A stretch of DNA of 24,352 nt, from IMG/VR virus record IMGVR_UViG_2548876950_000008; one strand, 5' to 3'. The stretch comes from a virus (taxonomy: Duplodnaviria > Heunggongvirae > Uroviricota > Caudoviricetes). The translations under genes and the position numbers were made by a program. The notes below the pieces were generated by a model, which did not search any database, had not been told where the DNA came from, and was given only the letters and a program-made list of their open reading frames with translations. The number at the start of each line of letters is the position of its first letter. Position 1 is the first letter of the stretch. This document shows, one piece after another, positions 7,948-8,439 of this stretch.

Positions 7948-8439
7948 TTATGGAGCTACACCCGGCCCCCTGGCTCGTTCTTCAAGCGTACCCTGCACGT
8001 TTTGATGGCGCATTCCTGGGGCATTTCTGATTGAGTCAATGCCATTTCTTCCAACATCTTCTTTATTAACGGCATTGCTCGCCACCAGCACACCCCAGCT
8101 AGGGATAGCAAAATCAGGAGCGGTTTCGCATGCCTTTACCATATAATCGAAAGTGCTTCGATTGATCTCATTTGCATCGGGGTTTAATAGGCGAGAATAT
8201 TGGTATTTAGCATTTGCGTTGGTTGAGACTTTATACAGTTCCTGCTGCACCATCGCTTCAGAAAGTTTAAGGCGCTTCATATCTGACAGTAACTTCTTGC
8301 GCATGGATTCGTCTTCACTGACAGCAAATCCGTAAACGTGCCCAAGGTATTTCGTATAATCGGTACAAATCTCCTTTACGCTTGATGCTGCATTAACAGT
8401 CCCAGCCATAAATAATAACGGTAGTAATAGTTTTCTCAT
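7948..8439 (-). CDS. secreted protein with C-terminal Sit-derived motif (163 aa from the second ATG); candidate superinfection-exclusion (Sim-like) protein
   Basis: ORF track 7948..8466; the better start is the ATG at 8439 (SD GGTGAGG) giving MRKLLLPLLFMAGTVNAASS... (signal peptide). C-terminus ...NAPGMRHQNVQGTLEERARGPGVAP matches Sit ...GRGMRREVVQGTLEERARGKG. Confidence 0.65.
   Translation of the reverse strand: MRKLLLPLLFMAGTVNAASSVKEICTDYTKYLGHVYGFAVSEDESMRKKLLSDMKRLKLSEAMVQQELYKVSTNANAKYQYSRLLNPDANEINRSTFDYMVKACETAPDFAIPSWGVLVASNAVNKEDVGRNGIDSIRNAPGMRHQNVQGTLEERARGPGVAP

Follow-up and report, generated by a model that had tools for sequence, protein, structure and literature searches.

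A secreted protein in the variable sim locus of P1-like phage-plasmids shares a conserved linear motif with the tape-measure protein Sit

The stretch of DNA analysed here (hereafter the window) is the 24,352 nucleotides (nt) of IMG/VR virus record IMGVR_UViG_2548876950_000008, from a virus of the Caudoviricetes. It aligns to E. coli P1-like phage-plasmids (~95 kb) with 98-99% identity over ~90% of its length, which identifies it as an E. coli P1-like phage-plasmid and not as P1 itself, the phage named in an earlier note on this sequence. The window contains sit (minus strand), pmgB, tub, pmgC and three cargo genes, followed by c4/icd/ant (plus strand). The interval between pmgC and c4 differs among P1-like elements. 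It contains simC-simB-simA in P1, upf50.0 and upf50.5 in P7, two hypothetical genes in phage Ro157c2YLVW and the open reading frames (ORFs) ORF394, ORF168 and ORF172 in the window. The simABC genes form one of eight highly variable regions described in P1-like phage-plasmids (PMC9603915). Here we describe ORF172, whose predicted secreted product carries in its C-terminal tail a motif that is also found in Sit. The features concerned are as follows.

487..3861, minus strand: sit, encoding the tape-measure protein (structural injection transglycosylase) of 1124 residues; full-length match to phrog_2533, named sit in P1 records
835..870, minus strand: second copy of the Sit GMR box, DKLRNSPGMRKN (residues 998-1009), inside a 43-residue insertion
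997..1074, minus strand: first copy of the Sit motif, NKFMNGRGMRREVVQGTLEERARGKG (residues 931-956); AlphaFold2 predicted local distance difference test (pLDDT) < 50, from a shallow alignment
1321..1638, minus strand: SLT lytic transglycosylase domain of Sit (residues 742-847; Pfam PF01464, E=1.7e-14)
7948..8466, minus strand: ORF172, SimA-domain family gene, 172 residues; phrog_3933, E=2.4e-113, profile positions 1-162 of 213
7951..7962, minus strand: cassette recombination junction right after the motif, with the allele-specific end G-VAP-stop
7960..8037, minus strand: Sit-like motif of ORF172, DSIRNAPGMRHQNVQGTLEERARGPG (residues 144-169), in a flexible C-terminal tail with pLDDT 43-52
8062..8385, minus strand: all-helical folded domain of ORF172 (residues ~28-135), with invariant CTDY.KYLGH, IPSW, C34 and C113
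8389..8439, minus strand: Sec-type signal peptide of ORF172, MRKLLLPLLFMAGTVNA, with cleavage predicted before ASS as read from the sequence

The C-terminus of ORF172 reads NAPGMRHQNVQGTLEERARGPG, or over longer stretches IDSIRNAPGMRHQNVQGTLEERARGPGVAP and GIDSIRNAPGMRHQNVQGTLEERARGPGVAP, each of the latter two running to the stop codon. Both the coordinates of the gene and its match to Sit, as proposed in the earlier note, were confirmed by location and by alignment. The BLOSUM62 local alignment of ORF172 with Sit scores 90, a value that was reached in 0/1000 shuffles (mean 38, maximum 65), and the motif peptide is identical to the first Sit copy at 16 of 26 residues. Family profiles recover the same segment in both directions, ORF172 matching the Sit family phrog_2533 at profile positions 927-963 (E=1.8e-5) and Sit matching the ORF172 family phrog_3933 at positions 129-169 (E=1.3e-5). 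The likeness between the families is restricted to these 36 residues (positions 927-963 of 1130 in phrog_2533), and ORF172, with neither tape-measure helices nor an SLT domain, is by this comparison not a Sit fragment. Similarity to a second segment of Sit had also been claimed; it is present, yet weak when taken alone because its score of 53 is reached in 23/1000 shuffles. A "VASN" similarity upstream of the second copy (score 53, 23/1000 shuffles) is not established. None of the other reading frames of the window carries elements of the motif, the consensus of which is (F).N..GMR..xVxG[TS]L..RA.G.G.

At the nucleotide level, the best local alignment between ORF172 and sit spans 53 nt with ~72% identity. 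Over the motif, 52/78 nt are identical, and the local score, 36, lies above the best of 500 codon shuffles, 34. The same codon is used for 7/16 of the identical residues and a different codon for 9/16. The DNA similarity, which had been put at about 60 nt, does therefore exist but is a product of amino-acid conservation, and a recent copy or gene conversion within the window is rejected. For the same reason the statement that the motif was copied from Sit does not hold in the sense of a recent copy; the peptide has been kept while synonymous codons diverged, and the likeness is old and under selection. As a separate observation, several 205-residue 'variants' from public assemblies (P0002, P0004, P0007, P0008 and P0017) read an alternative frame through the motif region (7956..8111, minus strand; ECAIKTCRVRLK). 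These look like frameshifts or assembly errors and not real isoforms.

Even at an overall identity of only 50-58%, Sit orthologues retain D[LM][VA].KF[ML]N[GSA][RP]GMR[RHQ][EQ].VQGTL[EA][ED]RA[RY]G almost unchanged, and the most distant Sit found (P0044) still carries RNAPGMRHQVATGSMADRAYG. On the other side, F.N..GMR.Q is kept by all intact members of the SimA family. The whole motif is present in about half of the family, the other half having exchanged its second half for a cysteine-containing module. This replacement, PS..FK[SA]C... with paired cysteines in P0011-P0015 and P0023-P0027, suggests an alternative C-terminal effector module joined after the GMR box. Among nine full-motif members, the mean pairwise identity is 0.64-0.74 in the motif, 0.41-0.80 in the folded domain and 0.19-0.43 in the flanks. 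The most distant member, P0045, has a domain that is ~38-45% identical to the others (tblastx segments) and carries NAPGMRHQAVKGSMAERARGDG, a 78% match to a Sit motif over 23 residues. An exhaustive HMMER search of 1.84 billion representative proteins with a profile of the motif returned 10 matches. Of these, 9 belong to Sit or to the SimA family, some of them as fragments; the other, the 376-residue repeat protein P0046, rests on a short repeated MLEERTRGHG segment and is unrelated. The same profile had no match among PDB sequences. The motif thus appears to be exclusive to the Sit and SimA families. It is a selected linear motif, common to an injection protein and to a protein with an export signal encoded in the sim superimmunity slot.

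The family of ORF172, phrog_3933, is labelled "simA domain protein" by some sources, and ORF172 has its conserved blocks CTDY.KYLGH, LSEAMV and IPSW. The C-terminal module that follows the motif in the family (profile positions 163-213) is absent from ORF172, which stops 3 residues past the motif. A Shine-Dalgarno sequence, AGGTGAGG, lies 5 nt ahead of the second ATG at 8439 (MRKLLL...), and the first ATG (8466) has no ribosome-binding site. The second ATG is probably the true start, which would give a precursor of 163 residues, and the start chosen in the annotation of P1 simA is probably wrong. Residues N25, A26 and S28 at the signal-peptide cleavage site are invariant in the SimA family. 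Because of the signal peptide and two invariant cysteines, ORF172 is probably located in the periplasm. AlphaFold2, run on the long allele described below (97% identical to the window protein over the common part) with a shallow alignment, gave a confident all-helical domain at residues 28-135 (pLDDT ~90). The motif stretch was modelled with low confidence (pLDDT 43-52) and one short helix over TLEER, and a C-terminal helix after the motif was seen in the long allele only. Mature ORF172 is accordingly modelled as a soluble helical domain with a flexible tail. A match to PTP-like phytase (PF14566) covering part of the profile scored 25.2 bits, under the cut-off of 27, and was dismissed as spurious. 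A search of solved-structure sequences with the family profile gave nothing significant (best E 0.0055, with no single stretch passing).

A word-indexed search of 5.8 billion proteins found ORF172 homologues in 28 clusters. The homologue-bearing long contigs examined are all P1-like elements (~60-104 kb) and come from E. coli, Salmonella or Klebsiella. A SimA-family gene is present in 126 PLSDB records. A scan of genome contigs for further SimA/Sit pairs gave 4 loci only, 2 of which are probably mis-binned contigs of metagenome-assembled genomes (MAGs). Segments 98-100% identical to ORF172 occur on two short contigs (L014, L015) in MAGs named 'Candidatus Paenibacillus intestinavium' and 'Bacillota bacterium', probably through bin contamination. 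In a distant metagenomic P1-like lineage (L089 10001..10531, L090 10001..10651), the SimA-family gene lies away from c4/ant/pmgC/sit and adjoins rdgC and a large DNA methylase gene; the Sit-like motif is kept there as a G-S-M variant.

Two SimA-family alleles occur in E. coli elements, a long allele (RGPGTNSPMGNLSPEELQEY; 216-220 residues, ~25 IMG/VR loci) and the short allele of the window, which ends in RGPGVAP before the stop (~17 IMG/VR loci). The C-terminal position ascribed to the motif is therefore a property of the window allele; in the long alleles the motif is internal and ~45 more residues follow it. The likeness of the long allele to Sit runs further, GPGTNSPMGNLSP aligning with GKGTTTSMGNVSP in Sit. 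Homology between the window and Ro157c2YLVW stops at ~7960, directly past the RGPG codons, and the short allele is always linked to a downstream cassette of an ORF168-type YfjT gene and ORF394. The SimA-family protein is therefore modular, and the modules discerned in its sequence are a signal peptide, a helical domain, the Sit-like motif and a variable C-terminal module or none.

Sit has been identified as the tape measure of P1 (PMC9024508). Its motif starts ~85 residues past the SLT domain, on the C-terminal side. In an AlphaFold2 model of residues 700-1124, the SLT domain is moderately confident and everything past residue ~873 is of low confidence, the motif included. A search with the C-terminal 264 residues recovered Sit fragments only, which is why the model of this part is shallow and low in confidence. 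A short helix is placed over TLEERA in the Sit motif, like the TLEER helix of the SimA-family model, and the location of both copies in low-confidence modelled regions fits a short linear binding motif. The 43-residue insertion of Sit (832..966; residues ~966-1010) contains a second version of the GMR box, which is the first half of the motif. It was found in both E. coli-type Sit proteins examined (the window and L055) and was absent from 7 orthologues of other lineages (L004, L006, L008-L012).

The relationship to the P1 sim genes is close at one end of the locus only. P1 simA (53 residues; L001 2864..3022) is 92% identical over 51 residues to the start of ORF172 (window 8314..8466), and from the C1 operator Oc4 down through the 5' end of ORF172 the window and P1 are virtually identical. 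As judged from this alignment, annotated P1 simA is a 5' remnant of a full-length SimA-domain gene and has neither the helical domain nor the motif; in P1, a simB-simC cassette has replaced the remainder of that gene, and the Sit-like motif with it. The window contains neither a simB nor a simC homologue, BLASTP of SimC and SimB against ORF172, ORF168 and ORF394 giving no E < 0.2. Upstream of ORF172 lies one further feature, whose coordinates were carried over from the P1 annotation through the near-identical alignment, the promoter being a prediction in the P1 record.

8504..8552: predicted PsimA promoter region and C1 operator (-10 at 8504-8509, -35 at 8525-8530, Oc4 at 8536-8552)

Our preferred reading, which we regard as a serious possibility though short of probable, is that ORF172 is a periplasmic decoy of the Sit linear motif and thereby causes superinfection exclusion. 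A lysogen would export ORF172 into the periplasm. Sit, which is assembled in the cytoplasm, would enter the periplasm only when ejected from the tail tube of an infecting related phage; because of this, ORF172 would meet Sit or a partner of Sit only during superinfection. The ORF172 tail would then occupy the binding partner, of host or phage origin, on which the Sit motif depends for cell-wall passage and DNA entry, such that adsorption would succeed and injection would fail, that is, superinfection exclusion. Since the Sit motif is near-invariant across genera, such a decoy would be hard for incoming phages to escape. The location of ORF172 in the sim variable region beside c4/icd/ant is counted as fitting exclusion. 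The secreted mimic envisaged in the earlier note is thus partly supported, by the export signal, the sim locus, the conservation and exclusivity of the motif and its place in low-confidence modelled regions, though not in its wording of a copy. A more far-reaching and slightly less likely proposition is that P1-like prophages jam the injection of related phages by mimicking a segment of their own virion protein and not via a dedicated binding protein; the GMR core and the VQGTL.ERA.G second half would then mark the site at which the tape measure of a contractile-tailed phage engages an envelope partner.

Parts of this scheme have parallels in known systems. In P1, the sim locus (simA-simB-simC, with SimC a processed exclusion protein) occupies the same pmgC-c4 slot as ORF172. 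Both loci encode signal-peptide proteins and have a common 5' end and upstream region; they differ in that the window has no simB/simC homologue and SimC has no Sit-like motif. T4 Spackle (Sp) is a small, helical, periplasmic phage protein that inhibits the gp5 tail lysozyme of an incoming tail. No similarity to ORF172 in sequence, nor a clear one in fold, was detected, however, and Spackle is not known to mimic a part of gp5. In the prophage TP-J34, the exclusion lipoprotein Ltp is located outside the cytoplasmic membrane and has the tape measure as its genetically identified target. Unlike ORF172, Ltp is a lipoprotein of a Gram-positive host with its own repeat fold and no known tape-measure-derived segment. 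T4 Imm binds the T4 tape measure, and HK97 gp15 is cited in the same work as interacting with the HK97 tape measure (bioRxiv 10.64898/2026.03.06.709160). Like the role proposed for ORF172, both are phage-encoded, envelope-located, directed at a tape measure and block genome entry after adsorption. However, they are inner-membrane proteins that bind the tape measure via their own fold, whereas ORF172 is predicted to be soluble and periplasmic. A copied piece of a tape measure has been reported in neither of them, and no family shared by either with ORF172 was found in Pfam, PHROG or PADLOC. A partner of the kind that the decoy model needs has precedent, lambda gpH engaging ManYZ during injection (PMC13190303). 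In both lambda gpH-ManYZ and the HK97 tape measure-PtsG pair, a defined region of the tape measure engages a host inner-membrane protein. These phages are siphoviruses, and no decoy of their tape-measure regions is described. Exclusion from the envelope at the tape-measure step is known, and mimicry of a linear motif would be a new mode of it.

Within single genomes, comparison of the two copies gives a mixed picture. The E. coli type has LEERARG in both Sit and the SimA protein, other Sit proteins having LAERAYG. NAPGMRHQ occurs in both proteins of L004 (21/24 nt identical), NSRGMRH and NSRSMRH are paired in L006 (20/24 nt identical), and NARGMR occurs both in the second Sit copy and in the SimA protein of L055. 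G-S-M is found in both Sit and SimA in the SHEN lineage only, all others having G-[TSA]-L. (L088 and L089 belong to the same element because they overlap with 100% identity over 5628 bp.) Across 7 lineages, the N..GMR.. codons of Sit and SimA have a nucleotide identity of 0.74 when both come from one genome, as against 0.68 when they come from different genomes (permutation p 0.008), an excess that could stem from shared lineage codon bias. Moreover, the amino-acid identity over the 26 residues is borderline (exhaustive permutation fraction 0.053), and there are clear within-genome mismatches in L055, L010 and L011; in L055 the Sit is of the E. coli type and the SimA motif is divergent. The matching of SimA and Sit within genomes is only suggestive and lock-step co-evolution is not claimed; we conclude that a shared constraint maintains both copies, possibly with an exchange now and then.

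The codon-bias explanation, the borderline identity and these mismatches weigh against the decoy, as do several further points. A shared motif could be accounted for by several mechanisms, of which competition for a Sit partner is just one. The full motif is not essential to every member of the SimA family, as about half keep only F.N..GMR.Q. The AlphaFold2 models rest on alignments of 18 (SimA-family) and 6 (Sit) sequences, and the P1 cryo-electron microscopy structures (PMC12810830) leave Sit unresolved in its C-terminal part. Expression of ORF172 in lysogens is assumed from the predicted promoter of the P1 record. PADLOC and NCBIfam have no match for the ORF172 family, and the literature searched contained no exclusion phenotype, binding partner or interaction for the SimA family. 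Papers on P1 structure and P1-like phage-plasmids mention neither the motif nor a function of full-length SimA-family proteins; the similarity may have been noticed earlier, since the P1 genome paper (Lobocka et al. 2004) lies outside the literature covered.

The outcome would still be exclusion if the SimA-family protein bound the incoming Sit directly and not a third party, which we consider unlikely. The motif could be a self-association element of the tape measure, a soluble copy of which co-assembles and poisons channel formation, or the helical domain could be a receptor for the Sit motif, with its own tail as a displaceable pseudo-ligand. The structural and conservation evidence serves this alternative as it does the decoy, T4 Imm acts by binding its tape measure directly, and shared lineage changes (G-S-M in SHEN, EERARG in the E. 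coli type, NAP and NSR with identical codons in L004 and L006) agree somewhat more with direct binding or gene conversion than with a conserved third party. However, AlphaFold2 leaves the tail undocked from the helical domain (tail pLDDT < 52), overall within-genome matching is not significant, and L055 and the half-motif members break the pairing. Conservation without strict within-genome matching is what would be expected if both proteins instead needed the same conserved host factor, be it a periplasmic chaperone, a protease or an envelope site, and the motif were a handling or address signal without a part in exclusion. HK97 injection, for instance, requires the periplasmic chaperone FkpA. 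The SimA-family role would then lie elsewhere, for example in envelope modification or lysogenic conversion with the secreted YfjT-family protein with whose gene it is always paired, and the SHEN-lineage gene, away from sit and the immunity region, would be accommodated. Yet a motif for a general host factor should recur elsewhere, and this one is exclusive to two families among the representatives searched; moreover, the locus is the known P1 superimmunity locus. We rate a shared address signal as decidedly unlikely.

There is a slim chance that ORF172 is an inhibitor resembling Spackle, the Sit motif docking onto or regulating the SLT domain and ORF172 using the same segment to inhibit the transglycosylase and block wall passage. 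The Sit motif lies just C-terminal to the SLT domain and ORF172 is, by prediction, small, all-helical and periplasmic as is Spackle, but AlphaFold2 leaves the Sit motif unpacked against the SLT domain (at low confidence) and Pfam and solved-structure searches did not relate the sequence of ORF172 to a known inhibitor of lysozymes or transglycosylases. Lastly, the motif might be a functionless relic, a sit fragment captured by illegitimate recombination into a simA-family gene, or vice versa. The locus is a hot spot of recombination with a junction right after the motif, P1 simA is itself a truncated remnant, and the second half of the motif has been lost in some members. Against this, the peptide has outlasted divergence at synonymous sites, it is retained where the domain is only ~40% identical, and its conservation equals that of the folded domain, unlike that of its flanks. 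A neutral relic is therefore very improbable.

The passage of contractile-tail tape measures across the periplasm and the opening of the inner membrane are poorly understood. Near-invariant in Sit, absent from other protein families and present a second time in a secreted prophage protein, the 26-residue motif points to a specific functional site, and the ORF172 copy is a natural reagent for probing it. Should the decoy reading prove true, virion linear-motif mimicry would join the known means by which prophages exclude rivals, and a cargo gene of many E. coli, Salmonella and Klebsiella P1-like phage-plasmids would gain a function. These phage-plasmids disseminate resistance genes, and P1 serves as a standard tool for transduction. 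Should the decoy fail, the motif would still be a conserved, unexplained element of Sit.

The two other cargo genes of the window lie downstream of ORF172.

7353..7859, minus strand: ORF168, secreted YfjT-family protein (phrog_3429, E=2.2e-70; PF27224 (YfjT) on its counterparts)
6182..7366, minus strand: ORF394, third cargo gene (phrog_7086), with a hydrophobic segment and a C-terminal SH3_3-like domain

In all P1-like lineages examined, a YfjT-family gene was the immediate downstream neighbour of the SimA-family gene, and its product may work together with the SimA-family protein. In E. coli elements it occurs as two allelic types that are only ~27% identical to each other. The SH3_3 match of ORF394 scores 25.8 bits, under the Pfam cut-off of 27, and the hydrophobic segment is near residues 268-290. 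The start of ORF394 overlaps the stop of ORF168 by 14 nt. ORF394 is variable, with 52-99% identity between loci, and was found only alongside the short SimA allele.

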